In this document: one piece after another, positions 3,496 through 20,532 of the stretch
Numbering within the stretch: position 1 is the first letter of the stretch
Layout: each line of letters starts with the position of its first letter
DNA from: a virus
Lineage: Duplodnaviria > Caudoviricetes
Length of the DNA stretch: 27,349 nt
IMG/VR virus record: IMGVR_UViG_3300049173_000085
Coordinates: 1-27,349 of that record
Strand: one strand, 5' to 3'
Translations under genes and position numbers: made by a program
Notes under the pieces: model-generated
What the model was told of the DNA's origin: nothing
The model's database searches: none
The model's input: only the letters and a program-made list of their open reading frames with translations

Positions 3496-5466
3496 TCAGG
3501 TGTCGATGAGCTCCTGGACCAGGCCGGTCCACAGCTTCAGTTCGTCGCGGGTCTGGTCCGCGAGGGCGGCGCTGCGCTCCAGCGCGGCTGCGGTCGCCCC
3601 CGCGCGGCGGTCACCGTTGCGGTACAGGTCGCGGATCGTGCTTCCCCAAGCCCGGTAGTCCGCCCTGTCGATAAACGTTCCCGCGTCGCCGAGCGCTTCG
3701 CGCAGTCCCGGCGTGGGGTGGGCAATGACGGGGATGCCGGACGCCAAGGCCTCGACAGCGGCCATGCCGTACGACTCGTAGACGCTCGGCACCATCAGCA
3801 CCCGTGTGCGCGCCCACACGTCCCGCCGCATGTCCGACGTCTGGCGGACGATCCGCATGTTCGGCTGCGTGACCCGGGTGATCTGCTCGCCGTGCGCGCC
3901 CGTTACGCCGAGGAACGGCAGCTCGCGGCGCATCCCAGCAGCGGCCTGCCAGGTTTCCACGCCCTTGTGCCGGTTCAAGTTGACCAGCGTCACGTGCGTA
4001 CCCGGGCGCGCCCGGTGCTCCTCGGGAATGACCGGCGGATGAACGACCAAAGAGCGCGGCCGGGCTACTTCGGCCGGGTAGCGGCCGGCGAGCGACTCCG
4101 CGACCCAGCGGGTGTTGTAGACGGCCAAGTCCGGGCCGAGGGCGAGGGCGCGGGCTGTGACGTCGAAGTCGTTGTGTACCAGCAGCACGGACCGCGCGCC
4201 GGTCTCGTGGGACAGGGTGATCGCCCGCTCGGCGAAGTCGTGGTGCGTGATGACCGTCTTCGGCCGCACGGTGCGCAGCAGCGCCTGGGCATCGTGCGGG
4301 GCCAGGGCCCGGTATGGGACTTCGTCAACCTCCCAAGCAGTGGGCGCTTTGGGCATGGCGGAGCAGATGACCAGCACAGCGAGGCCAGCGCCCTGGAGCG
4401 CCCGCATCATCGTGTGGAGCATCGTCTCCGATCCGGCCCGCCGGTACGGCACGCCGAAGTGGACCCATGCGATCGCGTCAGCCTCCCGTACGGGCGGAGC
4501 GGGCGCGGGACGACGCTTCGGCCTGCCAGCTCCTGGACGGCCTCTTGCCAGGCTGCCGCAAGCCTCCGTGAACGCGCGCAGGTTGCCCGCGTGGTCCAGC
4601 GTCTCGGCCTGGGCCAGGGCCGCCGTCGACGCCGCCGCGTAGGCGACGGGATCGGACAGGCGACGAATCTCGGCGATCCAGCCGTCCACGTCCTCGCGCG
4701 GCACGTACGAGGCGGCTGCGCCGAATGCCTCCCGCATGCTGGGCAGCGGGGAGGCGATGACGGGGATCCCCGACACCATGGCCTCGAGTCCGGCCCGCCC
4801 GTAGGACTCGGTCGTCGACGGCATCAGCAGCAGCCGCGTGCGCTCGTACAGGGCGCGCGGGTCCATCCGGTCGACAGTCTCGACGTTGGGCAGCTCCACG
4901 GCGCTGGGATAGCCGTAGCTGCGCACGAGGAGGAACCGTTCCTCGGGCATGCGCGCGGCGACGGCCGCAAGGACATCGGCGCCTTTCTCGGGGGCCGTGC
5001 CGTTCATGCTGATGAGCCGGCCGGGCGTGGTGCGGTACCGCTCCGGGGCGATCGGAGGAGACAGCACGAGGGTCCGGCCCCGGTAGTCGCTGTAGTGATC
5101 GCGGCACGCGTTCGAGGGGAACCAGGCGAGCGCTGGCGTCCCGAGCCGCCGTCGCGCTGACATGCCGTGCACCATCAGCAGATGCGGCACCCCGCGCAGG
5201 TGCTGCATCATCTGCGGGGCCCGACGGTCGCCGTGATGCGAGACCGCCAGCTCGGGCCGAACCTTGAGGAAGGCGCGCCACCAGTCCCCTTGCGGCCATA
5301 CCCGGATGCCGTCCTCCACCCGAACTGTGCCAGGCTCACGGCGCGTCAGGACAACGTCCACCGTGTGCCCCGCCGCCACCAGGCCAAGGGCGTACTCCCG
5401 GCTCGTGATGAAGGCCCCCGTCGGCGCCGTCCGCCCGTAGTACGGCAGGAGGAACAGGATGCGCAC
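3496..5466 (-). CDS. Tandem double GT4 (GT-B) glycosyltransferase, 656 aa
   Basis: GTG at 5466 with SD AGGAG; two EX7E signatures: PSTTESYGRAGLEAMVSGIPVI and PSVYESYGMAAVEALASGIPVI. Confidence 0.85.
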   Translation of the reverse strand: MRILFLLPYYGRTAPTGAFITSREYALGLVAAGHTVDVVLTRREPGTVRVEDGIRVWPQGDWWRAFLKVRPELAVSHHGDRRAPQMMQHLRGVPHLLMVHGMSARRRLGTPALAWFPSNACRDHYSDYRGRTLVLSPPIAPERYRTTPGRLISMNGTAPEKGADVLAAVAARMPEERFLLVRSYGYPSAVELPNVETVDRMDPRALYERTRLLLMPSTTESYGRAGLEAMVSGIPVIASPLPSMREAFGAAASYVPREDVDGWIAEIRRLSDPVAYAAASTAALAQAETLDHAGNLRAFTEACGSLARGRPGAGRPKRRPAPAPPVREADAIAWVHFGVPYRRAGSETMLHTMMRALQGAGLAVLVICSAMPKAPTAWEVDEVPYRALAPHDAQALLRTVRPKTVITHHDFAERAITLSHETGARSVLLVHNDFDVTARALALGPDLAVYNTRWVAESLAGRYPAEVARPRSLVVHPPVIPEEHRARPGTHVTLVNLNRHKGVETWQAAAGMRRELPFLGVTGAHGEQITRVTQPNMRIVRQTSDMRRDVWARTRVLMVPSVYESYGMAAVEALASGIPVIAHPTPGLREALGDAGTFIDRADYRAWGSTIRDLYRNGDRRAGATAAALERSAALADQTRDELKLWTGLVQELIDT

Positions 5467-5473
5467 GCTGCTC

Positions 5474-5638
5474 CTACTCCTGGTTCTCTTCTGCTGGGGC
5501 GGGCACGACGATGATTCCGGCGGCCTCGTTGAACTCGGCCTCCGTGACTTCGCGGTAGCCGTCCGGGACGACCCCGAACACCTCCGCGTCACCGCTGAGC
5601 GAGATCCACCCGCCGGATTCGTTCACGAAGTAGCGCAT
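5474..5638 (-). CDS. Small acidic protein, putative fibre-assembly chaperone, 54 aa (absent from ORF track)
   Basis: SD AGGAG; MRYFVNESGGWISLSGDAEVFGVVPDGYREVTEAEFNEAAGIIVVPAPAEENQE*; fills the gap between genes; paralogous to 6733-7029 and 11909-12121. Confidence 0.7.
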   Translation of the reverse strand: MRYFVNESGGWISLSGDAEVFGVVPDGYREVTEAEFNEAAGIIVVPAPAEENQE

Positions 5639-5648
5639 GGCCAGGCTC

Positions 5649-6701
5649 CTACCGGGTGATGGCGATCAGGTCGGTGTCGGTGATCCACTGCTGGAACGTG
5701 ACGCTGCCCGCAATGACGCGCACCGCCGGGTAGACGCGCACCGCGTAGCCGGTATGCGGGGGAAGCACGGCCGCCTGAGAGACACCGAAGCTGTACCTCT
5801 CGCGGCGTGCGGGGCCGTTGACGTAGACGCCGTGCAGTACCCGAACCCCGAGGGCGCCGCCGTTGATCTGCACGGCGTAGCCCAGCTCCCACTGGGCGTT
5901 CGCCGGCCAGGTGAGTTCAACGTGGCCGGTGAACCGGGTCGAGAAGCTGATGCCACGGCACGCGCTCAAGGTGTCGGCGGTGTACGTGCCCTCCGACCAG
6001 GCGTTCGTGTCGACGAGGACGAACCCGGAGGTGACGTTGACGGTGGGCGTGCCGAGCGGGTGGTTCTGCTGGAGAGTGACGGCCGCCGACGTGTGCTCGG
6101 GCGGAGTCCACAGCGCGCCCGTGTCCGGGTCGCAGTGCAGGGTGCTGTTCGCTGCCGGGTCGCAGGTCCAGTCCGTGGTCCACGCGCGGTCTGCCGCGAT
6201 CGGGAATGCCGCGAGCGGCGCCCCGGCGGAGCCGTCGCCCTGGAGGCCACAGCCGATCTCCAGCGGCGCGTCGGGCGGAACAAACAGCCCGCCGTCCGTA
6301 CCGAACGAGACCTGGTTGCCCGCGTCCGTCGACAGCCGCGCCTCGACCTCGCCGGTGCCCGCGTCGTACGCCGCGCCGTCGCCGGCCGTGATGCACGAGC
6401 GGACGTCGGCGCACTCGACGTAGAGCCCGTCCGGCCCCTCGTGGACCAGGTTGCTGCCACCGCCGGGCGGGCTGGGGTCGAGGATGACGTCCGTGCTGAT
6501 GACGTACGGGTCACCGGCGCTGCCGGTGCCGCTGACGGTGTTGTCCGCTGTGGGGGTGTCGCCGGCCTGGACGGCGGTCGTTGCGCCACCGCCGCCGCTG
6601 ATGACGTAGGGGGCACCGGACGAGCCGTTGCCCTCGACGGTGATGCCGGGGCCGGCGACGACGCGGCAGGTGCAGCGCGGTGCGCCGCAGCAGTTGGCCA
6701 T
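5649..6701 (-). CDS. Cys-rich fibre-like virion protein, paralog B, 350 aa
   Basis: MANCCG start; VxGxGSxGxPYxIS and GNxVxxGxDGGLFV fibre-type repeats; beta-rich C-terminal domain. Confidence 0.6.
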   Translation of the reverse strand: MANCCGAPRCTCRVVAGPGITVEGNGSSGAPYVISGGGGATTAVQAGDTPTADNTVSGTGSAGDPYVISTDVILDPSPPGGGSNLVHEGPDGLYVECADVRSCITAGDGAAYDAGTGEVEARLSTDAGNQVSFGTDGGLFVPPDAPLEIGCGLQGDGSAGAPLAAFPIAADRAWTTDWTCDPAANSTLHCDPDTGALWTPPEHTSAAVTLQQNHPLGTPTVNVTSGFVLVDTNAWSEGTYTADTLSACRGISFSTRFTGHVELTWPANAQWELGYAVQINGGALGVRVLHGVYVNGPARRERYSFGVSQAAVLPPHTGYAVRVYPAVRVIAGSVTFQQWITDTDLIAITR

Positions 6702-6732
6702 GAGGAGGCTCCGTCTCGTGAAAGTGGAACTG

Positions 6733-7029
6733 TCAGGCGCCGCTGTCCGGGCCCATGTAGCCGGTCAGGCGGCGCGTGGTCGCCTCCGGGACGCCGAGCG
6801 CCCGCAGCGCCTCGTAGTCGGCCTGCTGGTTCGCCTCGGTCTCCTGGGTGAGCTGCTGGGTGTGGGCCTGCCGCTGCTCCTGGACGTCGGCGAGGGCGTC
6901 GGCGTACTCGGCTTCGGTGAGCGCCGTGGCCCCCTCGGGGAGCGGCGGCGCCTCCGCGTGGTCACCGGTCACCGTCCGGGACGCCAGGGCCCCGCCAGCA
7001 GTCCGGTAGTACAGGGATGCGTCTGCCAT
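6733..7029 (-). CDS. Putative fibre-assembly chaperone, 98 aa
   Basis: SD AAGGAG; LPEGATALTEAEY resembles the Tfa-type PxxAxE(I/L)(T/S)EEEY motif; directly follows a fibre-like gene. Confidence 0.5.
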   Translation of the reverse strand: MADASLYYRTAGGALASRTVTGDHAEAPPLPEGATALTEAEYADALADVQEQRQAHTQQLTQETEANQQADYEALRALGVPEATTRRLTGYMGPDSGA

Positions 7030-7042
7030 GGAACGGCGCTCC

Positions 7043-8059
7043 TTACAGGACGATCACGAAGGCGCGGAGGAAGCTCTGGACGCGGTTGTACGTCGCGCCT
7101 CCGCTGCCGCGGCCCATGCGGATGGACAGGGTGAAGTTCAGGCTTCCGCCTGCGGGGATGGTGCCGCCTGCGACGACCTTGGTGGCCTGCGCGTGGGTGT
7201 CGAGGATGGCCGTCGTGCCGCTGTTGCGCAGGTACCAGGTCTCGTCTGTGGCGATGCCGAGCGCGGCCCCTGCTCCTGCCGGGAGGTTGAAGTCGGCGTC
7301 GACCTCGCCCTCCATGAGGAGGAACGCGGGACGGCAAGCGTCCGGGTTGTTGACCGTCATGGTGTGCGTTGCGACCTCGGTGTCCTGCGCAGCAGGTACA
7401 GCCACGTCGGCGAAGTCGAGGACCTGCTGATCCTGTTGGTGGGTGATCTGGCCGCGCGGTTCGGAACGGAGCTGCCCGCTGCTGTCGCAGTACACCCCGC
7501 CCGCGTTGGCGTCCACGTCGCACGGGTACGGCCAGGTCCCCACCATCGCAGTCAGTGGCGCCCCAGCGCTGCCGTCGCCGGTCAGGCCGCACCCCGTCCC
7601 GGGCGGCGTCGCGCTCACCTCGTACGGATCGGCCGCCGATCCGGTGCCCGTGACGGTCACACCCGGGCCGGCCTCCACGACCGTGCCCTCAGCGGCGATC
7701 GTGCCGGTGGTCTCGTCGTAGGTGACGCCGTCCCCCGCCGTGAGGCAGGTGCGGACCTGCGCACACTCCAGGAACAGCCCGTCAGGGCCTTCCTGGATGA
7801 GGTTGCCGCCGCCACCGGGCGGGGCCGGGTCGAGAATGACTTCCGAGCTGACGATGTACGGGTCACCCGCCGCACCGGTACCGGTGACGGTGGTATCCAC
7901 AGTGGTGGTGTCGCCGGCCTGAACGACGGTCGTGCCGCCCGAGCCGCTGTCACCGCTGATGACGTAGGGGGCCCCCGACGAGCCGTTGCCTTCAACGGTG
8001 ATGCCGGGGCCGGCGATGACGCGGCAGGTGCAGCGTTCCGCGCCGCAGCAGTTAGCCAT
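7043..8059 (-). CDS. Cys-rich fibre-like virion protein, paralog A, 338 aa
   Basis: ATG at 8059 (MANCCGAERCTCRV), SD GGAG; N-terminal ~115 aa nearly identical to 5649-6701. Confidence 0.6.
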   Translation of the reverse strand: MANCCGAERCTCRVIAGPGITVEGNGSSGAPYVISGDSGSGGTTVVQAGDTTTVDTTVTGTGAAGDPYIVSSEVILDPAPPGGGGNLIQEGPDGLFLECAQVRTCLTAGDGVTYDETTGTIAAEGTVVEAGPGVTVTGTGSAADPYEVSATPPGTGCGLTGDGSAGAPLTAMVGTWPYPCDVDANAGGVYCDSSGQLRSEPRGQITHQQDQQVLDFADVAVPAAQDTEVATHTMTVNNPDACRPAFLLMEGEVDADFNLPAGAGAALGIATDETWYLRNSGTTAILDTHAQATKVVAGGTIPAGGSLNFTLSIRMGRGSGGATYNRVQSFLRAFVIVL

Positions 8060-8092
8060 GAGGGGGCTCCGTCTCGTGGAGAGGTGGAGTCG

Positions 8093-8127
8093 CCCGGCCC
8101 ACAACCAGCGGCGTCACGTCGAGTCTA
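8093..8127 (-). promoter_or_regulatory. Putative late promoter (-10 TAGACT) plus conserved leader motif, copy 2
   Basis: TAGACT at 8127-8122, then 10 nt, then CCGCTGGTTGTGGGCCGGG (8111-8093). Confidence 0.6.
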
Positions 8128-8141
8128 GGCAGCGGCGCCCG

Positions 8142-8447
8142 CTACGGGGCGACGGCTTGCGCGTGCACGGTGACCCCGGCGGCCGGGGCCCCGGCCGCGA
8201 GGACCCCGATGCCGAGGAGGGTCACGCCCGCGGACGCGAGGACGTTGACCGTGGTCGACGTCGCCGAGTTCGCGGCGATCGAGTGCGAGCGGAACGCGCT
8301 CCCGCCCTGGAGTCCGATGGTCACGACCGGGGGTGCGGAGAACGCCCCGGCCGGCCAGTTGAAGACGACGTTCCCGGAGCCGTCGGTCACCCCGGTCGCA
8401 CGCTCGACGCGCGGCGAGGGTGGCGTGTAGGTGCCGTGTGTGGGCAT
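8142..8447 (-). CDS. Small beta-rich protein, H-type-lectin/gp53-like fold possible, 101 aa
   Basis: In operon order; VVFNWPAGAFSAPPVVTIG resembles the VxFxxxFxxPPxV motif of fibre-tip domains. Confidence 0.5.
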   Translation of the reverse strand: MPTHGTYTPPSPRVERATGVTDGSGNVVFNWPAGAFSAPPVVTIGLQGGSAFRSHSIAANSATSTTVNVLASAGVTLLGIGVLAAGAPAAGVTVHAQAVAP

Positions 8448-8456
8448 CGGCCGCGT

Positions 8457-8939
8457 TTACAGCTCGCGCGTCGACAGGACGATGAAATCGGAGCCCGCGA
8501 CGCCGGTGAACACGAACGCATCCTGCAACTTCTCGCCGTTCTTCCCGCCCTGGTCGACGGACCACGTGCCCGAGCTGCCCGCCGGGAACGCGACGGCCGT
8601 CCCGCCGCCGATCGCCACGGTGGGCGATCCGGCGAAGACGAGCAGCGTGACGGAGCGCGCCCCGGCCGCGATGGTCACGTTCCCGGCGCCGGTCTGTCGC
8701 TGCGCCGTAGAGTCGATCTGTGGGTTCGGGGAGGCGCCGCACCGTACAACGGTGCCGGTCGGCGCGTACGCCGTGGTCCCGTCCAGCGTCGTGTCCGACA
8801 CGGCGGGGGCGCCGGTACCGCTGGTGGTGTAGTGCCGCAGGAACGGCGTGCTGCTGCCGTCGGCCTGGACGTCGCACAGGATCTCGTACTCGGCATCGGC
8901 CGCCGCTGCCGCCGAGACGCTGCCGCTGGTACCGGACAT
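8457..8939 (-). CDS. Mini-scaffold: one Cys-bounded repeat plus C-terminal cap domain, 160 aa
   Basis: ATG at 8939 with SD GGAGG; EILCDVQADGSSTPFLRHY...DTTLDGTTAY..TGTV..C repeat and SVT...WSV cap shared with the two large proteins. Confidence 0.75.
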   Translation of the reverse strand: MSGTSGSVSAAAAADAEYEILCDVQADGSSTPFLRHYTTSGTGAPAVSDTTLDGTTAYAPTGTVVRCGASPNPQIDSTAQRQTGAGNVTIAAGARSVTLLVFAGSPTVAIGGGTAVAFPAGSSGTWSVDQGGKNGEKLQDAFVFTGVAGSDFIVLSTREL

Positions 8940-8961
8940 GGGGGACCTCCAAAGGGAAGGG

Positions 8962-9438
8962 TCAGGCGACTCGGTGGAATCGAAGGGTGGTGCGGGCGTT
9001 GACGTCGGAACCCAGACCGGCCAAATCCGTGCTGCCGACGGCGTTGATGTCCTGCCGGACGGCTTGGAGGCGGATCGTCCGCGCGGAGGTGACCGCATAC
9101 TCGACGCTGATCGCAGTGGACCCGTTCCACGCCAGCCCAGTGGCCGCCGTCCCGCCGTACTCGGAGATCTGAACAACGATGGCTTCACTGTTGGGGACGA
9201 CCGTCCCCGACGTGACATCGAACAGGCGGGCACCGACGAAGGCGTTCTCCCCCGCCGTCATACGGCCCACGTTTCCGCGAACGACGGCGTCGAGGTGGTA
9301 CGTCCCGGCCGTCGGAAGCACGAGCGAAAGCGCGGTGTCGACGAACACCCCTGAAGCGGCACTCATGAGGTTCATGGGCGCGGGGAGGACGGCGAACCCG
9401 CTGCTGCGGATCTCCACGCTGGCGGCGGTTCCGGTCAT
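8962..9438 (-). CDS. C1q/TNF-like jelly-roll protein, paralog 5 (no N-terminal Cys module), 158 aa
   Basis: ATGA overlap at 9435-9438; LVLPTAGTYHL..ARLFDVTSGTVVPNS..TIRLQ aligns with the neighbours. Confidence 0.65.
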   Translation of the reverse strand: MTGTAASVEIRSSGFAVLPAPMNLMSAASGVFVDTALSLVLPTAGTYHLDAVVRGNVGRMTAGENAFVGARLFDVTSGTVVPNSEAIVVQISEYGGTAATGLAWNGSTAISVEYAVTSARTIRLQAVRQDINAVGSTDLAGLGSDVNARTTLRFHRVA

Positions 9439-9923
9439 GCCGGGGTGTCTCCCTCCGGGCCGACCCAGTGGGCCGTGATGTACGTGCGGCCGTCCGGATT
9501 GCTGACGACGGCGGCCGTCCCGTCCGTGCCAGGGCGCCAGGCGGCGAGTTGCACTGTGTCCCCGGCGGCGAACGTGTGCATGAACTGGCGTGAGCCGCAC
9601 GCCTGCACGTTGCCGCCCTGGTCGCCCGCCGCTTGGCTGAGGTAGACCACCATCGCCTCGGTGCCGGGGACAAGAGCACCGTTCTTGTACATGCCGCCCG
9701 TGACGCCTGTCCCCGTAGCCGCTGCCGATCCGGGAAGGGCTGCGACGCCACGCATCTGGTAGTTGACCTCCCACACCCCGGCGCGCGGGATGGTCAGCGT
9801 GGGCACCTCAGGGAGAACCTCCCACGTCCGCACTGGCGCAGTGATCGTGTGGAGGAAGTCGAGCGTGCCTGTCTGTGCCCACGCTCCGTCAACTCGGTTG
9901 AGGCTGGCGGCCGTGCCGGTCAT
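9435..9923 (-). CDS. C1q/TNF-like jelly-roll protein, paralog 4, 162 aa
   Basis: LTIPRAGVWEVNY..MYKNGALVPGT..ACGS..FAAGDTVQL closely follows the C1q/BclA-CTD pattern. Confidence 0.65.
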   Translation of the reverse strand: MTGTAASLNRVDGAWAQTGTLDFLHTITAPVRTWEVLPEVPTLTIPRAGVWEVNYQMRGVAALPGSAAATGTGVTGGMYKNGALVPGTEAMVVYLSQAAGDQGGNVQACGSRQFMHTFAAGDTVQLAAWRPGTDGTAAVVSNPDGRTYITAHWVGPEGDTPA

Positions 9924-10612
9924 CAGTCGCTCACCTTCTGCCAGAGGATGCCCTGCTGGTTGGTGGTGCTGCTCAGGTAGTGCTGGAGGTTGGCGTTAGC
10001 CTGCGTCCCCCCGTCGGCAGTGGCCCGCAGTCCCCGGATCTCATACGTCGTGGGAGCTGCGATCGTGACGTACCCCTCACATACCGCGTTGCCTCCGATC
10101 GACTTGAGGCCAGTGTCCGGGTTGACCGTGCCGGGCTCGTCGTGGAGAAGGACCTTCCTCGGACTGCCGGGCACGAACGCATTCGTTGCGGTGTTGACCC
10201 ACAGGGCGTTGATCGACGCGATGTGCCGGCCGTTGAAGTTCCACGTGGCGAGCCCGAACACGTGGGCGGTGAGCCGGTAGACGCCCGGCTCGGGCAACAC
10301 CACCTGACTGTTCGGCAGGGGCACTTGCTGGCCCAGAGCCGACGTCCGCAGGTCCGCGGTGCCAGCGTTGAGAGTCCCGAATACCGGGGTGAGTCGCGCG
10401 CCGACCGTCCAGGTCTCCGGGCATGCCCCGGCGGCCGGGGGCGTCACGTCCACGTCGACGGACCGCTCGGTGCCGACCGCCGTGCCGGGGGCGATGCCCG
10501 TGACCTCCGTACCCGGCACGAGGAGGCCGCGCGCCGTCTGCGTCAGGGCGTTGCACGCCGCCGGGTCCAGCTTCGGGTCGATGCGGTACGTACGCCCGCA
10601 CGCTCCGGCCAT
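9923..10612 (-). CDS. Cys module + C1q/TNF-like protein, paralog 3, 229 aa
   Basis: MAGACG..DPAACNALTQ..GACPETWTVGARLTPV then VLPEPGVY..; ends KVSD; TGATG coupling. Confidence 0.7.
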   Translation of the reverse strand: MAGACGRTYRIDPKLDPAACNALTQTARGLLVPGTEVTGIAPGTAVGTERSVDVDVTPPAAGACPETWTVGARLTPVFGTLNAGTADLRTSALGQQVPLPNSQVVLPEPGVYRLTAHVFGLATWNFNGRHIASINALWVNTATNAFVPGSPRKVLLHDEPGTVNPDTGLKSIGGNAVCEGYVTIAAPTTYEIRGLRATADGGTQANANLQHYLSSTTNQQGILWQKVSD

Positions 10613-11259
10613 CAGTCGCTCACTTTCCGGTAGCGGAAGTTATGGGCCCACACGACCTTCTGAAAGGTGGTTCCAACGTCGGTACGCCAGGACCCGTCAA
10701 CGCGGATCGTTGCCGGGCTGGTCACCTGATACAGCGCTGCCGCCGAGGCGTTGGCCTGGATGCCGGTGGTGCCCGTGGCGGTCTGATCGGTGAACAGGAT
10801 GATTCGCCGTGCAGTCAGCGGGACCTGGGCGCCGGCGGTGACGTCGAAGACTCGGGCGTCGATGATCGCGTTGCCGACACCGGCCGCCCACCCGATGGAC
10901 CCCTGCACGTCCGCGACCACCTCATATACGCCCGCCTCCGGCAGCACCAACTGCGCGCCGGTGACGGGAACCCACGTGTTGGCGGCAGCCGCATCAAGGG
11001 ACACAGCCCCCGAGGTCTGCCCAGAGACGGGCGTGAGCCGAGCACCGACCTGCCACGTCTCGGGGCACGCCCCAGCAGCCGGCGGCGTGACGTCGATGTC
11101 GACCGAGCGCTGCGCCGACACCGCGCCGCCAGGGGCGATGCCCTGGAGGGCCATGTGCGGGACGAGGAGCCCGCCCGCCGTCTGGGTAAGGGCGTTGCAC
11201 GGCGCAGGGTCCACGGGCGCGTCGACGCGGTACGTACGCCCGCAGCAGCTACCGGCCAT
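10612..11259 (-). CDS. Cys module + C1q/TNF-like protein, paralog 2, 215 aa
   Basis: Start ATG at 11259 (MAGSCCGRTYRV), TGATG overlap; ends KVSD. Confidence 0.7.
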   Translation of the reverse strand: MAGSCCGRTYRVDAPVDPAPCNALTQTAGGLLVPHMALQGIAPGGAVSAQRSVDIDVTPPAAGACPETWQVGARLTPVSGQTSGAVSLDAAAANTWVPVTGAQLVLPEAGVYEVVADVQGSIGWAAGVGNAIIDARVFDVTAGAQVPLTARRIILFTDQTATGTTGIQANASAAALYQVTSPATIRVDGSWRTDVGTTFQKVVWAHNFRYRKVSD

Positions 11260-11909
11260 CAGTCGCTCACCTTCACGAACCCGAGGCGTGGCCCTCCGAG
11301 GATCGCCTGTGTGGAGTCGTTGAAGCCGACGTGCTGCCGCAGCCCTTCCACGCGGATCGTCGTCGGCCCGGTGACGGTGAGGAAGGTGCTGACGCTGCCC
11401 GCGTTCTGCAGGGACATCACCGTGCCACCGCCGGGATCGTTGATGTTGCCGAACTGGATCCGCCGGTTGGAGCCGGGCACGAGTGCCCCCGCGGTGACGT
11501 TGAACAGACGAGCGTTGATCGCCACCGCCCACGGCGTGGTCGCGTTGATGTGCGAGTAGAAGTCGGCTGACAGGGCGTACGTCCCAGCCTCGGGCAGCAC
11601 AACTTGGGCACTGGTCGCCACCCATGTCCCGGAGGCCACGGCTTGCAAGTTCGCATCCGCCCCGAACACTTCACCGCTGACGGGGGTGAGGCGCGCCCCG
11701 ACCGTCCAGGTCTCCGGGCAGGCACCGGCGGCCGGTGCCTGGACGTCGACGTCGACCGAGCGGGTCGCCGAGACCGCGCCGCCGGGGGCGATCCCGGCGA
11801 CCTCGGCGTGTGGCACGAGGAGCCCGGCCGCCGCCTGCGTGAGCGCATTGCACGGCGCCGGGTCCAGGCGCGGGAAGACTCGGATTGACCCGCAGCAGCT
11901 CCCCGCCAT
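11259..11909 (-). CDS. Cys module + C1q/TNF-like protein, paralog 1, 216 aa
   Basis: MAGSCCG..; VVLPEAGTY..ARLFNVTAGALVPGS; ends KVSD. Confidence 0.7.
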   Translation of the reverse strand: MAGSCCGSIRVFPRLDPAPCNALTQAAAGLLVPHAEVAGIAPGGAVSATRSVDVDVQAPAAGACPETWTVGARLTPVSGEVFGADANLQAVASGTWVATSAQVVLPEAGTYALSADFYSHINATTPWAVAINARLFNVTAGALVPGSNRRIQFGNINDPGGGTVMSLQNAGSVSTFLTVTGPTTIRVEGLRQHVGFNDSTQAILGGPRLGFVKVSD

Positions 11910-12121
11910 CAGTCACCTTCCGAGGCAGTGGGGAGCGGCGAGGCGAAGACGTCCGGCAGGCTCGCGAGATAGGCGGCCTCGTCGACCTCCTCGTAGCCGA
12001 GATCGAAGTAGGGCGCGGCATCGCGCAAGTTGTAGACGACCTGGACGCCCTCGTCTTCCTTGGTGAAGTACCGGGGATTACGGGGCTCGGGCTCCAGGGC
12101 CTCGGTGGACTCGTTGCTCAT
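11909..12121 (-). CDS. Small acidic protein, putative fibre-assembly chaperone, 70 aa
   Basis: ATG at 12121, SD GAGG; RYF...GYEEVDEAAY motif shared with 5474-5638. Confidence 0.6.
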   Translation of the reverse strand: MSNESTEALEPEPRNPRYFTKEDEGVQVVYNLRDAAPYFDLGYEEVDEAAYLASLPDVFASPLPTASEGD

Positions 12122-12128
12122 GGCTGCC

Positions 12129-15100
12129 TCACTTCCAGGTCCAGTTGAGGAGGTAGCTCGCCCCGGCGGCTGCCCCGGCGAAGGATGCGGCGGCGAGCGC
12201 GGTGTCACTGTCCTGCGCGACGGACCACGTCATCGTGACGCCGGCCGGGATCGGCACCGCCGCGCCGTCCGACATGGTGACGTTGACCGTGCCCGCGAGG
12301 ACGGTCAGGCTGACGCTCTGGACACCGGCGAAGCTGCCCGCGAGGTTCTGTGGTGCGGTGCCGGTCACGGCCCGTACGCCGGTGCTCAGCGGCCCAGGCA
12401 GCGCCTCCGCGGCGGTGCACTCGACCGGCGCGACCGGCGTATACGGCTGGGTGAGGTCGCCGTCGAGGAACGCGCCCAGGAGTTCGGGGTCGGCCCCGCC
12501 GCAGGGGTCGACGGCCCACAGCTCGGTGTACTGGACGTCTCCGAGGCCGTCGCCGTCGGTGTCGTCGCAGCCGCACCGCTCCACCACCTGCTTGGCGCAC
12601 GAGGTGCTGTTTCCTGCCTCTCCGCCGCATGGCGCCAGATGCCAGCCGTCCGGGACGACGTCCTGGCGCTGCCCGTCCTCGTCCAGGTAGTAGACCGAGT
12701 CATCGCAGCAGACCATCCGCGTCCACGAGCGGGTCTCGGGGATGACCTCATAGGTGACCTTCAGGTGGACCATCAGGCCGGCGCCGCCGCCGACGGTCTC
12801 CTCCACGTCGAGGTAGAGGAAGTTCCGGCCCGCCTGCGCGCCCGGGACGGTGGCGGGGCCGAACGTGTACGTCGTCCCGTTGTGCGTGGCCGTCGCCGGC
12901 AGGGCCTGCCAGGCACCGTTGTTCAGCCGGAACGCGCGGCCGATCTGGTCGGCGTTGAACACCGTGGCCTGGACCTGGATGGTGGCCGGGTCGGCGTTGT
13001 CCGGCAGGTCGAAGTAGGCGCGCGGGTACCAGTGCTGAGCGGTGAGGGTCGGGCCCTCGTTGGGCAGCGCGGGGCTGGACTGCTGGATGCCGCCGGTCGG
13101 GTGCGGGCTCACCCACCAGGCCGGGCGCGCGGTGTCGGAGTCGGTGACCGACCAGGCCGCCGAGTACTGGTACTCGTACATGTCGTACCAGGGCGGGTTG
13201 GCCACGCTGAGGTCCGGAGTCCACTTCCATACCGGGTCCACAGAGCTGTTGTTGAGGTGACCCTCATTCGAGATGAACTCGACTTCTTGGGTGGGGTCCT
13301 GCTGGATGCAGACCTGGACCGGCTGGCAGCAGGACTCCGGCTCAGGCGGCTTGGGCGGCTCGCACACCCCGGCTGTCCCGGCCACGGTGTAGAGGGTGGT
13401 GCCGTCGAGGAGGGTGTCCGTGACGGTGGGGGTTCCGTCGCAGGAGCGGCAGATGTGCCGCAGGAACGGGCCTCCGGGCACCACCGACACAGCGCCGGCC
13501 CAGTAGGTGAAGAACACGCCGCACGCCGCCACGCGGCTATTGGGTGCCGGTGCGGTGGTGAACGAGGTGACCGCGCTGGCGGTGCGGAACCGGGCACTAC
13601 TCGCGATCAGCGGGTTCGTCACGTACGAGCACGGGTCGGGCGGCACGCCGTCCGCGGTGCGGGTCAGAACTCCGGTGGTCTCGTTGTAGGAGTAGCCGTC
13701 TGGCAGGTAGACGGCCTCCAGGCCGGCCGGGAGCTGAGCCCAACTGATCGACGGGTTGGCCGTGTAGTAGCGGACGTACACCGAGAACTCGACGATCGAG
13801 GGCCGAGAGAACGTCCACTTCGTTGGCGCGGTGACGGAGTGAGGGAAGCTGTGCAGTCCCCACCAGGAGCCGTCAGCGTTGCTGAGGTTGGCCGCCATCG
13901 CCGTGGTGTTCGTGGCGCCGGTGGACGTCCAGCCGACGCCGTTGGACAGGGTGCCGGATGAGGCGGTCCCGGTGATCGTGACCGGCGCGGCCGTGGGCAT
14001 GTCGCACAGCACCAGCGTCTCGCAGTCGCGGCAGCCCGGGCACACGCCCACGGTGGCCCCGGCCGGGACGGTCACCGGGTTTCCGGTGGCCGGGTCCACC
14101 AGGCGCGAGCCGACCACCGCGCCGGCCGAGTCGTACAGCACCTCTCGCCGTACCTGCTGGAGGACCGCCCCGGTGGCGCTCAGGACGCACAGGGGGATGG
14201 TCTCGACGTCGACCGGCACGTCTGGTGCGCACTGCTGCACGGTGCCGGTCGGCGTGTAGGCGGTGCCGTCGAGGGCGTAGTCGCTGTGGGCGACGATGGC
14301 GCCGGTCTCGTCCCTGCGGTAGTCCCGCACCAGGGGCACGCTGGTGCCGTCCGCCTGGACGTCACACAGGATCAGCGCGTCCTGCTCAGGCTGCTCGACT
14401 CCGGCCGGGCAGGTGGTGACGGTACCGGTCGGGGTGTAGGTGGTGCCGGTGACGGCGTCGACCAGGCGCACGGAGGCGATCGCCCCGGTGTCGTCGTAGT
14501 GGTACTCGACCAGCACCAGCCCGACGACGTCCCCGGCCGTGTCGATGTCGCAGAACGTACCGGCGAGGCTGATGGACCGGGATTCTCCGCACGCCACCGT
14601 CCCGGTCGGGACGGCGCCGGCCGTCCACGCCCCTGTGACGAGGTTCAGCCACCCCTCGGACGTGACCGTGCCGGTGCAGTCCCGGACGATCGTCACGGCG
14701 ATCGGTGTGCCGTCCGCGAGGCACAGGCCGACGCTCGTCGTCGGGGTCGTCGGGGAGGCACAGCCAGGGTCGGCGGGGCACGGCACCAGGACGGGGGCGG
14801 TGACGTCCTGGCCGGTCTCGACGTCCACGTACGTGATGGCCGAGTCGTCGCATCCGGCGCAGCGCACCGCGGCGGCCTGCCGGACGGTGCCGGTGCCGTC
14901 GTCGTAGCAGACGTGGCCGAGGACCAGCGGCGGCGGGTCGTCCGGGCTGCTGGTGCCGCACGCGCCCACGGTGCCGGTCACCGTGTACTCGGTGGTGCCG
15001 TCGAGGTCGGTGTCCGTGATCGTCGGGGTGCCGTCGCAGTCCCGGCAGATGTGCCGCATGAACGGGAGGGCCTGACCCGTGCAGCCGGTGACCGGCACCG

Positions 15101-15929
15101 GGCCCACGGTGACCGCGCCGTCCGTCACGGTCCACGTCTTGGGGTTCGTGTCCGTGCCGTCCGCCCCGGTTTCGAGGTCGAACTCCACCGTCACGGTCCC
15201 GGCGAGGAGGGACGCGACGGGAACGGTGTTCGTGATCGTGGCCGTCCTGGTCGACCCGGCCGGGAAGAACGCCCCCGAGCCCTGCCCGAAGTTGTCGACG
15301 CCCGGCAGCAGGGTCACGCCGTCCCACATGGACAGGCGGCCATACCAGTCCCACGCCCCACCCGTGCCGTCGTTGCGATAGGTGACGGTCGCGGTGAGGT
15401 CGACGGTGCCCGCCGGGTCCAGGTCGCCGCAGGCGGCGTCCCCGAGGCCGAGGATCACGCCGTAGTGGGTGTGCGCGCCGTCGTCGGCGCCGCCCGGTGC
15501 TGCGCCCGGGACGCTGACGGTCTGCCCCGACCAGATCGCCTCTGCGTCCGCGTCGCTGCCGTTCCTCGGCTGGCCGCTGATCTGCTGCCCGGCCGGGACC
15601 TGGAAGCCGGTGGCGGTGACCGGCGCGGTCGAGGTGGGAACAGTCGCGGTGTCGCACAGGATGACCGTCTGGCAGTCGGGGCAGTCGCTCGACGCCCCGC
15701 AGGGCTGGAGCGTGCCCTGCACCGTGTACGGGGCGCCGGTGACTGGATCGACGGTGCGGGTGCCTACGCGGTCGCCGCTGCTCGTGTCGTAGACCGGCTC
15801 GACGAGGACGGTGGCCGCGGCCGTGCCGTCCGGGAGGACGTCGCACAGTAGGACCGCCTCGACGTCGACTCGGGGCGTGGCGGTGGCGCCGCTGACGATG
15901 ACGGGCCCCTGCCCGCAGCATCCACTCAC
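12129..15929 (-). CDS. Large Cys-rich repeat scaffold 2 with three inserted domains, 1266 aa
   Basis: Long ORF with GC-rich third positions, GTGA coupling; about 10 Cys-bounded ~50-aa repeats; DxDxDG loop; no signal peptide. Confidence 0.8.
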   Translation of the reverse strand: MSGCCGQGPVIVSGATATPRVDVEAVLLCDVLPDGTAAATVLVEPVYDTSSGDRVGTRTVDPVTGAPYTVQGTLQPCGASSDCPDCQTVILCDTATVPTSTAPVTATGFQVPAGQQISGQPRNGSDADAEAIWSGQTVSVPGAAPGGADDGAHTHYGVILGLGDAACGDLDPAGTVDLTATVTYRNDGTGGAWDWYGRLSMWDGVTLLPGVDNFGQGSGAFFPAGSTRTATITNTVPVASLLAGTVTVEFDLETGADGTDTNPKTWTVTDGAVTVGPVPVTGCTGQALPFMRHICRDCDGTPTITDTDLDGTTEYTVTGTVGACGTSSPDDPPPLVLGHVCYDDGTGTVRQAAAVRCAGCDDSAITYVDVETGQDVTAPVLVPCPADPGCASPTTPTTSVGLCLADGTPIAVTIVRDCTGTVTSEGWLNLVTGAWTAGAVPTGTVACGESRSISLAGTFCDIDTAGDVVGLVLVEYHYDDTGAIASVRLVDAVTGTTYTPTGTVTTCPAGVEQPEQDALILCDVQADGTSVPLVRDYRRDETGAIVAHSDYALDGTAYTPTGTVQQCAPDVPVDVETIPLCVLSATGAVLQQVRREVLYDSAGAVVGSRLVDPATGNPVTVPAGATVGVCPGCRDCETLVLCDMPTAAPVTITGTASSGTLSNGVGWTSTGATNTTAMAANLSNADGSWWGLHSFPHSVTAPTKWTFSRPSIVEFSVYVRYYTANPSISWAQLPAGLEAVYLPDGYSYNETTGVLTRTADGVPPDPCSYVTNPLIASSARFRTASAVTSFTTAPAPNSRVAACGVFFTYWAGAVSVVPGGPFLRHICRSCDGTPTVTDTLLDGTTLYTVAGTAGVCEPPKPPEPESCCQPVQVCIQQDPTQEVEFISNEGHLNNSSVDPVWKWTPDLSVANPPWYDMYEYQYSAAWSVTDSDTARPAWWVSPHPTGGIQQSSPALPNEGPTLTAQHWYPRAYFDLPDNADPATIQVQATVFNADQIGRAFRLNNGAWQALPATATHNGTTYTFGPATVPGAQAGRNFLYLDVEETVGGGAGLMVHLKVTYEVIPETRSWTRMVCCDDSVYYLDEDGQRQDVVPDGWHLAPCGGEAGNSTSCAKQVVERCGCDDTDGDGLGDVQYTELWAVDPCGGADPELLGAFLDGDLTQPYTPVAPVECTAAEALPGPLSTGVRAVTGTAPQNLAGSFAGVQSVSLTVLAGTVNVTMSDGAAVPIPAGVTMTWSVAQDSDTALAAASFAGAAAGASYLLNWTWK

Positions 15930-18900
15930 AGGGTGACTCCGATCGTGTACGAGACGGTGACGGTGCCGCTGTCGGCGGCGATGGTGAGGGGGCCGGTGAG
16001 GAGGGCGTCCGCGTCACGGGCGACGCTCCAGGTGGCCGCCTCGCCGGTGTGCAGGGTGCTCGTTCCGTCGGCGGTGGTGACGGTGCCGGTGCCGCCGTGC
16101 GCGACCGCGGTGACGGACTGAAGCGTCGGCCAGGCCGCCGCACTCCAGGACTGGCCGGCCGCGAGCTCGCGGCGTCGGGCCTGGACGCCGAACGCGGGCT
16201 CTGCGCCCTCCTCGTCGTCGAGGGTGTCGCAGTCGATCGGCGCGACTGGGGTGTAGGGGCCGGTGAGACCGTCGGTGTAGGTGCCGAGGCTGGTGAGGTT
16301 GCCGTCGCAATCGACGGCCAGTAGCTCGACGTAACCCACGTCTGGCAGGCCGTCCGCGTCGGTGTCATCGCAGCGGCACGCCTCGATTACGTTCTGCACG
16401 TCGCACGGCGTGACCGTCCCGGCCGTCGCACCGTCCGCGGTGCACGCGCCCGCCTCGCCTTGCACGGTGTACGGGGTGACTCCGTCGAGGCCGAGGTCCT
16501 CGGTTGAGGTGAGGCCGCCGTCGCAGTCGAAGGTGAAGCGCCGCAGGAACGGTGTGCGCGTGAGGGTGAGCGCTGCCGTCCGCACCTCCTGTGGCATGAG
16601 GAACAGGTCACGGTCGTTGACCGGGCCGCCAGTCGTCTGGTCGGTGAAGCGGATCCGGACCGTTCCCGTGGCCGGGGCGATGAACTTCACCGGCGGCAGG
16701 TCCTCGGTCAACATGCCGCCCGGGAACACATTCGACCCGTTGGAGACGTTGCGAGTCCTGTTGGCGAGCACCGTGGTGCCGTCCAGGATCTCCAGGAGAT
16801 AGATCGCGTTGTTGGTGGCCGGGGTGGGATTTCCGGCGCCGACCCACGCGGACGCGAACCGGAACTCGTACAGCACGGTCGGGAGGAGTCCGCTGACGGT
16901 CAGTTCCGCTACGCCGTTGGCGGGCTGGTTGGCCTGTGCGAACCACAGGGTTGTGCCGTTGTTGGCGGCCACCACGTTCCCGGTCAGGGCGAAGTCGCGC
17001 GCCGGGGTCGGGATCGGGGCCTGCGGGTCATACGTCAGGTCGCAGAGCTGGGCGACCTCTGTGTCCCCGCACGGCTCGACGACCGTGCCGCCGCCACTGG
17101 CCGGGGTGCACTGTCCCGGCTCCCCGGTGACGGTGTACGGGTCGCCGTCGAGGGTGGTGTCCGTCACGGAGACGACCGCGCCGGTCTCACAGTCGAGGGT
17201 GATGCTGCGGAGGAACTGCGCGGCGCATCCGGTCTGGTCGTAGGCCACGGTTGCGGCGAAGTCGTCGAGCTGCCACCCGGTGCGGCGCGGCGGCGGGCAG
17301 GTGGCGCCGCTGTCGTCGTAGGCGTCGAAGGCGAGCGCGACGGCGATGTTCCCGGCGGCGAGGTCGCCGGCCGGGACGTCGGCCTCGACGGTGAGCGTCC
17401 CCGTCCACCCGGCGGGGGTGTCGGGCGGGGCGAGCGCGAGAGCTACCCGGTTCGCTTCCCCGGTGCCGTTGTAGAGGCCGAGGAATCCAGTGGCGCGGCA
17501 GCCGTCATCGGGGCCGAGCTGGGTGACGTCGACCTGCACCGTGACGTGTGCGGTGCCGGTGTCGCAGACCGGCCGCGGGGCCTGGAGGATCGCCGCGGCG
17601 GTCCGTACGGTGCCCCCGGTGCCCGGCTGCGGGCCTGCCGCGTCGGGGAGGGTCAGCGTGCCGCCGTCCCAGAGGGCTTGCGCGCCGGCCGCAGGGACGC
17701 CCGTGGTGTACGGGTAGTAGGGCGCCCCGGGGGTGTCGGTGACGGTCGGGGTCGGCGTGCCGTCTGTCGGCAGGTCGCACAGCAGGACCGTGCTCGTGTT
17801 CCGGCACGGCTCTGCCTCGGGCGCGCACTGGCCGACGGTGCCGGTGATGACGTACGGCGTGGTCCCGTCGAGCCTGGTGTCCCGGGAGTTGGTGACCTGC
17901 CCGGCGCAGTCGTAGACGAGGTGCCGCAGGAAGGCGGTCACGGTGCCGTCGAGGGCCGTGTCGCACAGCGTCAGTGTCTCCGTCTGCCCGCACGGATCCG
18001 TGTCCGGGGAGCAGGTACCGACGGTACCGGCGACGGTGTACGAGGTGCCGTCGAGACCGTAGTCCGTGTGGCCGTTGATCTGGCCGGTGCTGACGTCGCG
18101 CCGGTAGTCCCGCAGGAACGGGACCGATGTACCGTCGGCCTGGACGTCGCACAGGACGGTCAAGTCCTGGTCGGCGGCGGGCTGCCCTGCGCCGGCCGGA
18201 CACACCGTCAGCTCGCCCTGCAGCGTGTACGTGCTGCCGTCGGCCGGGTTGATCAGGCGCACAGACGCGAGGGAGCCGTCCGGGTTGTACTCGTACTCGA
18301 CGAGGACGACGCCGAGGACGTCACCGGTGCCGGGGTCGACGTCGCACAGCAGGCCGGCCAGCTCGAAAGCCCGGCTGTCCCCGCATGCCTGCGCACCGGC
18401 CGGTGGCGCGCCCGCACTGTAGGTGCCGGTGGTGAGGTTGAGCCATCCGTCCTGTGTGACGGTGTCGGTCGCGCAGTCCCGGGTGACGACGACGGCGATC
18501 GGTGTGCCGTCGGCGAGACACAGGCCGAGCGTCGCGGCCGGGGTGGTCTGCTCGGCGCACGGGGTGGCGCCGCTACCAGCGTCGCCCGCGCAGGCCCCGA
18601 CGGTGCCGGTGACGACGTGCGGAGTCTGTCCGTCGAGCGCGACGTCCTCGTACGTCGCTGTCCCGCTGAGGAAGACGTACCGGCGCAGGAACGGGCCGCT
18701 GGCGTCGCACAGCATCACCGTCTCGTGGTCGGGGCAGCCGTAGGTGCAGTCGACGGGCGAGATCGGCACGTAGGGCACCGACGGGTCGTCCTGGTAGGTG
18801 AGGACGAGTTCGGCGCTGCCGTCGGCGCGGATGCACCACAGCTCGCTGTAGGTGGCGTCGGCCGCGCCGTCGCCGTCGGTGTCGTCGCACAGGGCGCGAC

Positions 18901-19171
18901 ACACGGTGTCGACGCATCCGGCCTCGCACGGCCCGGCGTCGGTGGGGAGCGCGCCGGGAGTGAAGGTGCCGGCGACGTCGAGCCAGCCGACGACTTCGGG
19001 GTCCTCGGGGGCCTCGCCGCACTCGACACATCCGGAGCGGACGACGGCAAGGATCGTCGTGCCGTCGGCGCGGCACAGCGGTGCCGAGGCGACCGAGGGC
19101 GCGCAGCAGGTGGTGACCTCGATCGGTGTTGATCCGCCCTCGGGCGCGCAAGGTACGGGCTCGACCGGCAC
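15926..19171 (-). CDS. Large Cys-rich repeat scaffold 1 with two inserted domains, 1081 aa
   Basis: Starts immediately after upstream TAA; about 10 repeats; two DxDxDG loops; paralogous to 12129-15929. Confidence 0.8.
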   Translation of the reverse strand: MPVEPVPCAPEGGSTPIEVTTCCAPSVASAPLCRADGTTILAVVRSGCVECGEAPEDPEVVGWLDVAGTFTPGALPTDAGPCEAGCVDTVCRALCDDTDGDGAADATYSELWCIRADGSAELVLTYQDDPSVPYVPISPVDCTYGCPDHETVMLCDASGPFLRRYVFLSGTATYEDVALDGQTPHVVTGTVGACAGDAGSGATPCAEQTTPAATLGLCLADGTPIAVVVTRDCATDTVTQDGWLNLTTGTYSAGAPPAGAQACGDSRAFELAGLLCDVDPGTGDVLGVVLVEYEYNPDGSLASVRLINPADGSTYTLQGELTVCPAGAGQPAADQDLTVLCDVQADGTSVPFLRDYRRDVSTGQINGHTDYGLDGTSYTVAGTVGTCSPDTDPCGQTETLTLCDTALDGTVTAFLRHLVYDCAGQVTNSRDTRLDGTTPYVITGTVGQCAPEAEPCRNTSTVLLCDLPTDGTPTPTVTDTPGAPYYPYTTGVPAAGAQALWDGGTLTLPDAAGPQPGTGGTVRTAAAILQAPRPVCDTGTAHVTVQVDVTQLGPDDGCRATGFLGLYNGTGEANRVALALAPPDTPAGWTGTLTVEADVPAGDLAAGNIAVALAFDAYDDSGATCPPPRRTGWQLDDFAATVAYDQTGCAAQFLRSITLDCETGAVVSVTDTTLDGDPYTVTGEPGQCTPASGGGTVVEPCGDTEVAQLCDLTYDPQAPIPTPARDFALTGNVVAANNGTTLWFAQANQPANGVAELTVSGLLPTVLYEFRFASAWVGAGNPTPATNNAIYLLEILDGTTVLANRTRNVSNGSNVFPGGMLTEDLPPVKFIAPATGTVRIRFTDQTTGGPVNDRDLFLMPQEVRTAALTLTRTPFLRRFTFDCDGGLTSTEDLGLDGVTPYTVQGEAGACTADGATAGTVTPCDVQNVIEACRCDDTDADGLPDVGYVELLAVDCDGNLTSLGTYTDGLTGPYTPVAPIDCDTLDDEEGAEPAFGVQARRRELAAGQSWSAAAWPTLQSVTAVAHGGTGTVTTADGTSTLHTGEAATWSVARDADALLTGPLTIAADSGTVTVSYTIGVTL

Positions 19172-19684
19172 TTACGCCTCCGGGTGTGCCTGGCGGCGGT
19201 GGGTGTCCCGGCCGCGCTCGGTCTTGAAAGGGCGGTCGCAGACGTCGCAGGTGAAGCCGTCACTCTCGCCGTCGGTGTCGGCGTCTCGGTCGCTCGAGTC
19301 GCTGTCGTCGTCGCCGGGTGCGTCGTTGAGCGGGGCGTAGTCCGGCTCGGGCAGCGGCTTGGCGTCCGGCGGGTACGCCTCGTCCGGGATGGGCGGCAGC
19401 GCCTGGCCGGGGATCCCCTCCCTCTCCGGCTGGAACACGCCGAGGAGATCGGGCCCGTCGGCCGGCTCGGTCTGCTCCTGGTCCTCGTCGGGGCTGACGT
19501 AGCGGTGGCCGTCCACCGTGGCGCCGATCAGCAGCCGCTCGGGCACTTCGGTGAACAGGCGGGCGGGCACGGCGAAGTCGGTGGTGGAGACGGTGCGGAT
19601 CTTCGGTTCCTGGGCGACCGCCCACTCGGCGAAGTCGCGGCGCAGGCTGGGGGCGGGCCGGACGTGGATCAGCTCGGGGGGCAT
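19172..19684 (-). CDS. Protein with acidic/Pro linker and C-terminal C2H2 zinc finger, 170 aa
   Basis: ATG at 19684 with SD GAGGA; FTCDVCDRPFKTERGRDTHRRQAH = C-x2-C-x12-H-x4-H. Confidence 0.75.
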   Translation of the reverse strand: MPPELIHVRPAPSLRRDFAEWAVAQEPKIRTVSTTDFAVPARLFTEVPERLLIGATVDGHRYVSPDEDQEQTEPADGPDLLGVFQPEREGIPGQALPPIPDEAYPPDAKPLPEPDYAPLNDAPGDDDSDSSDRDADTDGESDGFTCDVCDRPFKTERGRDTHRRQAHPEA

Positions 19685-19692
19685 GGCGGTCC

Positions 19693-20532
19693 TCACGGGC
19701 AGGTCGTGACCTGTACCGCGCACACGGTGCAGGTCGTCGCGGGAACGTAGGTGCGCTCGGCCAAGACCCGCCGGTCGTTGACGCGGCGGTCGATGGAGGC
19801 GCCTGCGCGGTCGGGGATGACGTCGATGGGGCCTCGGCGGACGACGACCGGCCCGGAGATGTAGAGCCAGGCGGTGCCGGGCTCGGCGGGGGTGCCGTCG
19901 GGCCCGGTGTTCGCGGCGCTGTACCCGGAGCCGACGATCACGCAGTTCCCGGCGAGGGTGGACAGCCGGTTGCCGTCGACGTAGGCGATGTTGCAGCAGC
20001 CAAGGAGGGCGGCGGCGCCGGTCGGCACGTGAAGGGTGCCGACGCCGCCGTAGGACTCGGCAAGGCAGCCTTCCAGCGCGGCGACGCCCTGCGCGAGCGA
20101 CACCGGCCCTTCGCCCGGGGTCAGGTCGATGGCGCGAGGAGCGAGGGTGTACCGCCAGAACGCGCTCTCGACGGCCTGCTGCTCCCCCAGTTCCAGGGAG
20201 GCCCGGACGTGTTCGATGGCCTCCTGGTACGACCAGCCGATCGTGGAGCAGCGCACCCCGGCGTAGATGGTGACCGGGTCGGCCTCTTCGTGGGCCGGGT
20301 CGCAGAACTCCTTCTGGCCCGGCGGGGATCCTGGGGACTCTTCGCCAGGGGACTCGTCGGAGCACCAGTCGGTGTCACGGACTGGACAGCAGCCGAGCGC
20401 CATCCACTCCACGCCCAGCAACTCGTGCACGTCGTCGACATCGATGACGTCGGTACAGCCGCCGAGGATGCCGTAGGGCAACGGGCGGCCGGGGATGGCC
20501 TCGACTCGGCGTCGCATGCCAGCGGGTGGCAC
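19693..20532 (-). CDS. Second capsid protein, major capsid pentamer protein-like, 279 aa
   Basis: GTG at 20532, SD GAGGAGG; follows the MCP; PYG(I/L), GTLHVP, WLYISGPV and VLAERTY motifs as recalled for cluster-B-like pentamer proteins. Confidence 0.65.
   Translation of the reverse strand: MPPAGMRRRVEAIPGRPLPYGILGGCTDVIDVDDVHELLGVEWMALGCCPVRDTDWCSDESPGEESPGSPPGQKEFCDPAHEEADPVTIYAGVRCSTIGWSYQEAIEHVRASLELGEQQAVESAFWRYTLAPRAIDLTPGEGPVSLAQGVAALEGCLAESYGGVGTLHVPTGAAALLGCCNIAYVDGNRLSTLAGNCVIVGSGYSAANTGPDGTPAEPGTAWLYISGPVVVRRGPIDVIPDRAGASIDRRVNDRRVLAERTYVPATTCTVCAVQVTTCP

Follow-up and report, generated by a model that had tools for sequence, protein, structure and literature searches.

The window analysed here is the whole of IMG/VR record IMGVR_UViG_3300049173_000085, a linear virus record of 27 kb (27,349 nucleotides; completeness 38%), and our subject is a block of 14 minus-strand genes, running from 19171 to 5474, that is flanked by a small post-penton gene and by a double GT4 glycosyltransferase gene. 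Read along the minus strand, the window holds a MuF-protease fusion, a hexon-type capsid gene, a penton-type capsid gene, the small gene, the block, the glycosyltransferase, a tail tube gene, a Stealth-like gene and neck genes, the adaptor gene taking its place after that for the tail tube, as in the Rosebush/cluster BG order. In a set of 23 Rosebush proteins, gp15, 16, 21 and 24 have counterparts among the core genes, the capsid protein shares ~52% identity with its equivalents in Streptomyces phages of cluster BG, and the window is a siphophage of the Rosebush/cluster BG type with distinct hexon and penton proteins, whose tail-tip genes fall beyond the ends of the 27-kb record. The block has a modular anatomy, fills an optional slot, and its scaffold cysteines co-vary with those of the penton; it is a real, widespread and optional module, presumably of the virion.

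Three scaffold genes of the block are mutually related (BLAST E-values 4e-56 to 1e-6). S1 (15926..19171, 1081 amino acids (aa)) begins with a P-x-x-P-C connector (Cys8 codon at 19148-19150), continues with 55-aa two-Cys repeats and two inserts, and ends in a C-terminal domain of type 1; S2 (12129..15929, 1266 aa) has an N-terminal CCG, repeats, three inserts and a type 2 domain, and the short S3 (8457..8939) has a single repeat and a type 3 domain. The five tip genes (profile matches, E 2e-111 to 8e-10) comprise T1 (11259..11909; N-terminal CCG stem and T2-homologous head), T2 (10612..11259), T3 (9923..10612; N-terminal CG stem and head) and the head-only paralogs T4 (9435..9923; BclA_C at E 0.086) and T5 (8962..9438; zero cysteines), with the small acidic protein a1 (11909..12121, 70 aa) encoded ahead of the long tip genes. 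Downstream of S3 lie gene x (8142..8447, 101 aa), the fibre-like F1 (7043..8059) with its small acidic partner a2 (6733..7029), and F2 (5649..6701), 58% identical to F1 across the first 200 aa, with a third small acidic gene, a3 (5474..5638).

An earlier note on this DNA had described 14 co-oriented, often coupled genes, several of them with an N-terminal CC or CG motif and none with a signal peptide. This description holds: 6 of the 13 junctions overlap, the motif opens 7 of the 14 genes, and a crude hydrophobicity check detected no signal peptide. Its four paralog families stand for the scaffolds, tips and fibres, while the small acidic trio is only weakly related (in a 24-protein set, a2-a3 E 2e-7, a1-a3 E 1e-3, a1-a2 E 0.03). 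The label "Cys-rich" has to be dropped as a mark of the block, as cysteine reaches 2.9–4.1% in S1, S2, F1 and F2 only and 0–1.9% in the remaining ten block proteins, against 4.7–8.3% in the flanking ones (penton 4.7%, tail tube 5.2%, adaptor 6.3%, and the protein at the terminator position). Relatives without the block have tail tube proteins that are just as Cys-rich, and cysteine richness is a trait of the whole lineage. The Dit proteins of the clade (L070-L073) hold 24–29 cysteines, compared with 15 in Rosebush, with the block present or absent.

The scaffolds are chains of the 55-residue repeat, of which 963 copies were counted in 123 proteins, with Cys7, Gly48 and Cys53 invariant in 56/56. 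The matches of the repeat profile amount to 678 clusters at 50% identity; searches of Pfam, NCBIfam and the PDB yielded no family for the repeats, and the Atlas gave no match. In the predicted structure of S1 (pLDDT 80, pTM 0.35) each repeat is a three-stranded meander and the linkers are loose, so that the modelled scaffold is a flexible bead chain, an elongated repeat shaft with a putative N-terminal anchor and putative distal binding domains; Foldseek with the whole of S1 returned diffuse multi-domain matches only. Inserted domains of 150–240 residues are placed between strands one and two of a repeat, about six insert types recur in close homologs, and 476 non-repeat segments of 139 further proteins fell into 65 clusters. 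For both inserts of S1 the models predict folds of the carbohydrate-binding module (CBM) type, i.e., galactose-binding-type jelly rolls. Insert B (aa 714–867; 16571..17032) resembles CBM22, CBM4, CBM35 and CBM16 (Z 8–10, precisely 8.3–10.1; root-mean-square deviation about 3 over 120–140 aligned residues), and insert A (about aa 468–645; 17237..17770), a beta-sandwich within a repeat loop, gives a weaker match to a CBM22-type tandem and a cyclase jelly roll (Z 9.0). No CBM Pfam membership was found for S1, S2 or the 62 homologs scanned. A common 88-residue domain without cysteines, a putative beta-sandwich, terminates 223 of 262 homologs and occurs in three related subtypes; three genes ending in such a domain are present in 26 of 43 complete slots, in the order 1-2-3 in 21. 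Variant repeats with a DxDxDG motif lie near both ends of S1 (18866-18889 and 16349-16372) and at the end of S2 (about 12547-12570) and are possible calcium sites.

Searches of the block proteins gave no family at cut-off in Pfam and NCBIfam, unnamed families only in PHROGs, and nothing significant in PDB sequence searches with the T, F and S profiles. The T2 head is predicted to adopt a TNF/C1q-like fold (model pLDDT 85.9; Foldseek matches 9ib7 at E 2.7e-5, 2wq4, 3twi and 1pk6), its nearest folds being the lectins PLTL and BC2L-C, along with BclA, ExsF, BxpB, C1q and a cyanophage tail-fibre domain; the heads of T1, T3, T4 and T5 are probably alike, by homology to T2 only. Of the C1q/TNF-like and lectin-like tips proposed earlier, what stands is a set of predicted folds, for one tip and two scaffold inserts. 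Homology between T and F proteins was considered and rejected; the T and F profiles had no homology to Rosebush gp36, nor those of F to gp37, and the C1q and adenovirus-fibre clusters that the Atlas proposed for F stayed below 0.9 and serve as leads only. F1 matches Mischief19 gp34 (E 6e-44) and is a paralog of the fibre gene at the ordinary tail-tip region. In 4 of 5 prophages with the block that region is intact and an F and a2 pair follows Tal, and because this homologous fibre and acidic pair closes the ordinary tail tip, F1/a2 and F2/a3 are, by sequence homology, duplicated tail-tip modules, with the acidic partner downstream of the F gene at both locations.

The block fills an optional slot behind the penton gene and one small gene. 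This slot is empty in phage TP1604, holds the glycosyltransferase alone in TurkishDelight, and carries a one-scaffold cassette in Mischief19 (gp18-22) and Xkcd426 (gp17-21) of cluster BG, whose scaffold repeats are 43–45% identical to those of the window over about 330 aa and which are closed by a homolog of x. Both cassettes differ from the block in having one scaffold and in lacking T and F genes at this position; the Xkcd426 insertion was published as five orphams with no function assigned (PMC5511901). A scaffold lies downstream of hexon and penton genes in 30 of 32 bacterial-genome loci, with one locus cut short and one decayed; a supposed second arrangement (L046) was rejected as a decayed remnant. 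Carriers belong to Streptomyces, Streptosporangiaceae and a few other actinomycetes, and, of 401 genomes sampled from a single genus, 17 gave a penton match. Among the 43 complete slots, x is present in 34, tips in 27, fibres in 20 and the glycosyltransferase in 14. In some cluster-BG-type phages an unrelated three-gene set occupies the same slot (L239:5244-6913, L241:5366-6878, L111:8303-9882), its first gene starting with the same P-x-P-CC connector followed by a short-repeat shaft. One head-tail region with the block comes from a record whose title describes a 102-kb Streptomyces plasmid (L055).

The penton gene (19693..20517; 274 aa; PHROG 779; Rosebush gp16 at E 3e-6 in the 23-protein set) sits outside the interval 5474..19171 delimited by the earlier note, and its product is the likely anchor of the scaffolds. 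When the cysteines of core proteins were compared between block-bearing and block-less relatives in a small set, only the last cysteine of the penton (Cys273; codon 19699..19701) tracked the block, and no tracking was seen for those of Dit, tail tube, hexon or the post-penton protein. Penton-anchored searches were then used to obtain 166 full-length rows, reduced to 109 without near-copies, 85 with a scaffold, 17 scaffold-less, and 7 of undetermined state that were excluded. A cysteine lies among the last four penton residues in 85/85 scaffold-bearing vs. 4/17 scaffold-less rows, and within the subset sharing 60% identity or more with the window penton the terminal cysteine is present in 54/54 with and 0/7 without a scaffold. 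This column is the best of the penton protein (p 2e-9, the next column 1e-3; these p-values ignore kinship), and the tree requires six changes of block state, five of them forced by starred branches. The four exceptional scaffold-less pentons all belong to genomes with another N-terminal-Cys gene, namely a different fibre set in three and a displaced scaffold in PIS 136, whose penton terminates in three cysteines; three Cys-less pentons from the undetermined rows, fetched later, lacked a scaffold gene ahead of that for the tail tube (3/3). On the other side of the presumed bond, a cysteine occurs no later than residue 16 of the first scaffold in 81 of 84 loci, in 73 of them within a P-x-x-P-C or similar motif. 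The number of terminal penton cysteines agrees with that of N-terminal scaffold cysteines in 80 of 85 pairs: a doubled scaffold cysteine faces a doubled penton cysteine in 16 of 16, and a single penton cysteine a single scaffold one in 64 of 64.

Since the terminal penton cysteine comes and goes with the block, its scaffold products are likely to be vertex-bonded fibres, and we put the probability that the scaffolds form fibres disulfide-anchored to the penton at the head vertices at about 0.7. The disulfide-linked head fibre of the earlier note thereby gains comparative support, through the co-variation of C273 with the block. In the proposed mechanism, the S1 N-terminal peptide would dock onto the penton C-terminus, which by analogy with the turret that hexon C-termini build at the capsomer centre in mycobacteriophage Jabs (10.64898/2026.07.24.740622, main text) would be exposed on the outside of the vertex, at its centre; the Cys8-Cys273 bond, and likewise the two cysteines of each repeat, would oxidise after lysis. 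S1, S2 and S3 may associate via their three related C-terminal domains, perhaps 1:1:1, tips with an N-terminal CC could dock at free chain cysteines, and F1/a2 and F2/a3 would sit either on the head fibre or on the baseplate. Such fibres would display domains with predicted sugar-binding ability and provide weak, broad and reversible adhesion to glycans of hyphae, spores or soil matter, ahead of infection through the ordinary tail tip. The most elaborate form of this, a branched head appendage with one S1/S2/S3 heterotrimeric bead chain locked to each penton and with tips and fibres plugged in via N-terminal CC connectors, is tentative and in our judgement rather doubtful.

Several points weigh against vertex-bound fibres. 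The position of the penton C-terminus is taken from analogy, and both the 60% identity cut and the last-four-residue limit were picked after the first set had been seen. Five pairs mismatch in cysteine number, three first genes carry no early cysteine, the double-cysteine pairs are confined to a few clades, and TP1604-like phages, which have no slot gene, retain cysteines within the last 8 penton residues. The Z-scores of 8–10 of the CBM-like inserts indicate a fold, not binding. In addition, the F and a pairs are paralogous to tail-tip genes, one prophage (G004) carries F genes in the block only, PIS 136 has its scaffold and tip genes directly behind Tal, and in Jabs, as far as the main text of the preprint goes, the accessory proteins are all at the baseplate, the capsid is undecorated and no repeat scaffold is described.

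In one alternative, the block would be an expansion of the adhesion device of the tail tip that has moved to another place, with all products on Dit/Tal as extra receptor-binding proteins. The F and a pair is present at the canonical tail-tip place too, the gene order in PIS 136 is tape measure protein, Dit, Tal, scaffold, tip, the Jabs heterotrimers are docked on Dit through an N-terminal cysteine, and the T2 model matches phage tail-fibre and spike domains (8ke9, 9eul). Yet the block is tracked by cysteines of the penton and not of Dit, the penton of PIS 136 has three cysteines at its end, and the T and F profiles lack homology to the Rosebush proteins named above, so for the block as a whole we regard this alternative as unlikely, while for F1 and F2 alone the odds of a tail-tip location are about even. 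With the scaffold after Tal in PIS 136 and a fibre pair at the tail tip, gene position proves nothing, and the argument from position that the earlier note had made cannot stand by itself. Between Tal and the scaffold gene, PIS 136 also encodes a small secreted-looking protein (L005:4086-4358), which may resemble chaplin/rodlin-type surface proteins.

A continuous, cross-linked capsid coat or lattice, exosporium-like and glycosylated by the adjoining enzyme, an extension of the capsid coat that the same note had suggested, seems very improbable. The many cysteines of the scaffolds, the resemblance of the T2 fold to BclA, ExsF and BxpB, and the top PDB sequence match of the S3 C-terminal profile, a weak one to the endospore-appendage subunit 7a02 (E 0.18), speak for it. 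However, co-variation is restricted to the penton (11 sites) and absent for the hexon in the small set compared, the invariant cysteine pairs of the repeats suit internal staples, a first look with Pfam Enas PF13157 found no candidate in 5/5 records, database searches of the block proteins found no lattice homolog, and the S1 model is a flexible bead chain; no test pointed to a coat. Membership of the glycosyltransferase in the kit is likewise not supported, since it occupies the minority of slots counted above and TurkishDelight has it without the block. Metal-binding cysteines, or non-virion morons acting at the lysogen surface, would fit virion assembly in a reducing cytoplasm, the DxDxDG variants with their suggested calcium sites and the predominance of prophages among carriers, but they are at odds with the lack of signal peptides by the crude check, the coupling of the genes within a late structural operon, the co-variation with a capsid residue and the disulfides resolved in Jabs, which has the same chassis; we consider this a poor prospect as well.

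The vertex fibre can also be set beside known systems. Head fibres occur in phiCbK, phi29 and RcGTA. Agrobacterium phage 7-7-1 has one flexible fibre per penton on a disulfide-linked capsid and makes first contact before tail attachment (PMC12796354); the likeness is one of description, and its fibre, unlike the one proposed here, binds flagella. To our knowledge, vegetative cells of Streptomyces have no flagella. The Jabs virion holds about 1,700 disulfides and docks its receptor-binding proteins on Dit by N-terminal cysteines (10.64898/2026.07.24.740622, main text); it shares with the window, whose block is known from genes, a hexon and penton capsid, CBM-like domains and, as far as the block's proposed assembly goes, N-terminal-Cys docking and a heterotrimer of paralogs. 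Endospore appendages (L-ENA and S-ENA) of Bacillus with BclA-type ruffles combine N-terminal Cys connectors, disulfide locking and C1q-like tips (PMC11362473) and may serve as a good working analogy. Nevertheless, they are polymers of a small stand-alone subunit with cysteines in its jelly roll, whereas the window scaffolds are long repeat chains, with no PF13157 candidate at that first look and without a collagen stalk, whose Cys-free C-terminal domains are the ends of longer chains. Rosebush gp17, encoded directly after the penton, is an outer capsid protein on hexamers and a proposed host-contact aid (PMC7150772); a phmmer comparison of the block proteins with the 23 Rosebush proteins gave no gp17 match at E 0.05.

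Among the neighbours of the block, the small post-penton gene (19172..19684) encodes a conserved N-terminal 65 aa, an acidic linker and a C2H2-like end, and occurs with and without the block. It is syntenic with the gene of the decoration protein gp17 at undetectable homology, and its candidacy as a gp17 homolog was rejected (hhalign 0.2%); the C2H2 zinc-finger-like end is found in the prophage clade and not in TP1604, Mischief19 or Xkcd426. The double GT4 glycosyltransferase (3496..5466) occurs irrespective of the block; in mycobacteriophages, enzymes of this kind add sugars to proteins of the capsid and the tail. Immediately after the tail tube gene lies a Stealth-CR2-like gene (1986-2687; E 8e-6, below the cut-off), also present in TurkishDelight and many relatives, block-bearing or block-less, and an internal segment (aa 273–457) of the MuF-protease fusion (22562-26350) matches PHROG "RNA ligase" families.

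As proposed, the fibre would work like known capsid fibres and is made of an undescribed repeat family; the literature searched held no description of it, and the supplements of the Jabs preprint, outside that search, may add penton-cysteine data. What emerges is a candidate family of capsid-fibre proteins and a single anchoring bond that can be tested in culture, by pairing a phage that has a cassette (Xkcd426, Mischief19) with one that has none (TP1604, TurkishDelight). The repeat could also be used as a natural scaffold for display, as it accepts inserts of 150–240 residues. Should the branched appendage exist, it would be a combinatorial lectin array, equivalent among viruses to the endospore appendages, and its connector code would be readable from sequence. 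If the vertex-fibre reading is true, phages of filamentous soil bacteria would bear a modular glycan-adhesion array on the head, which would matter for their persistence in soil and their encounter with hyphae.

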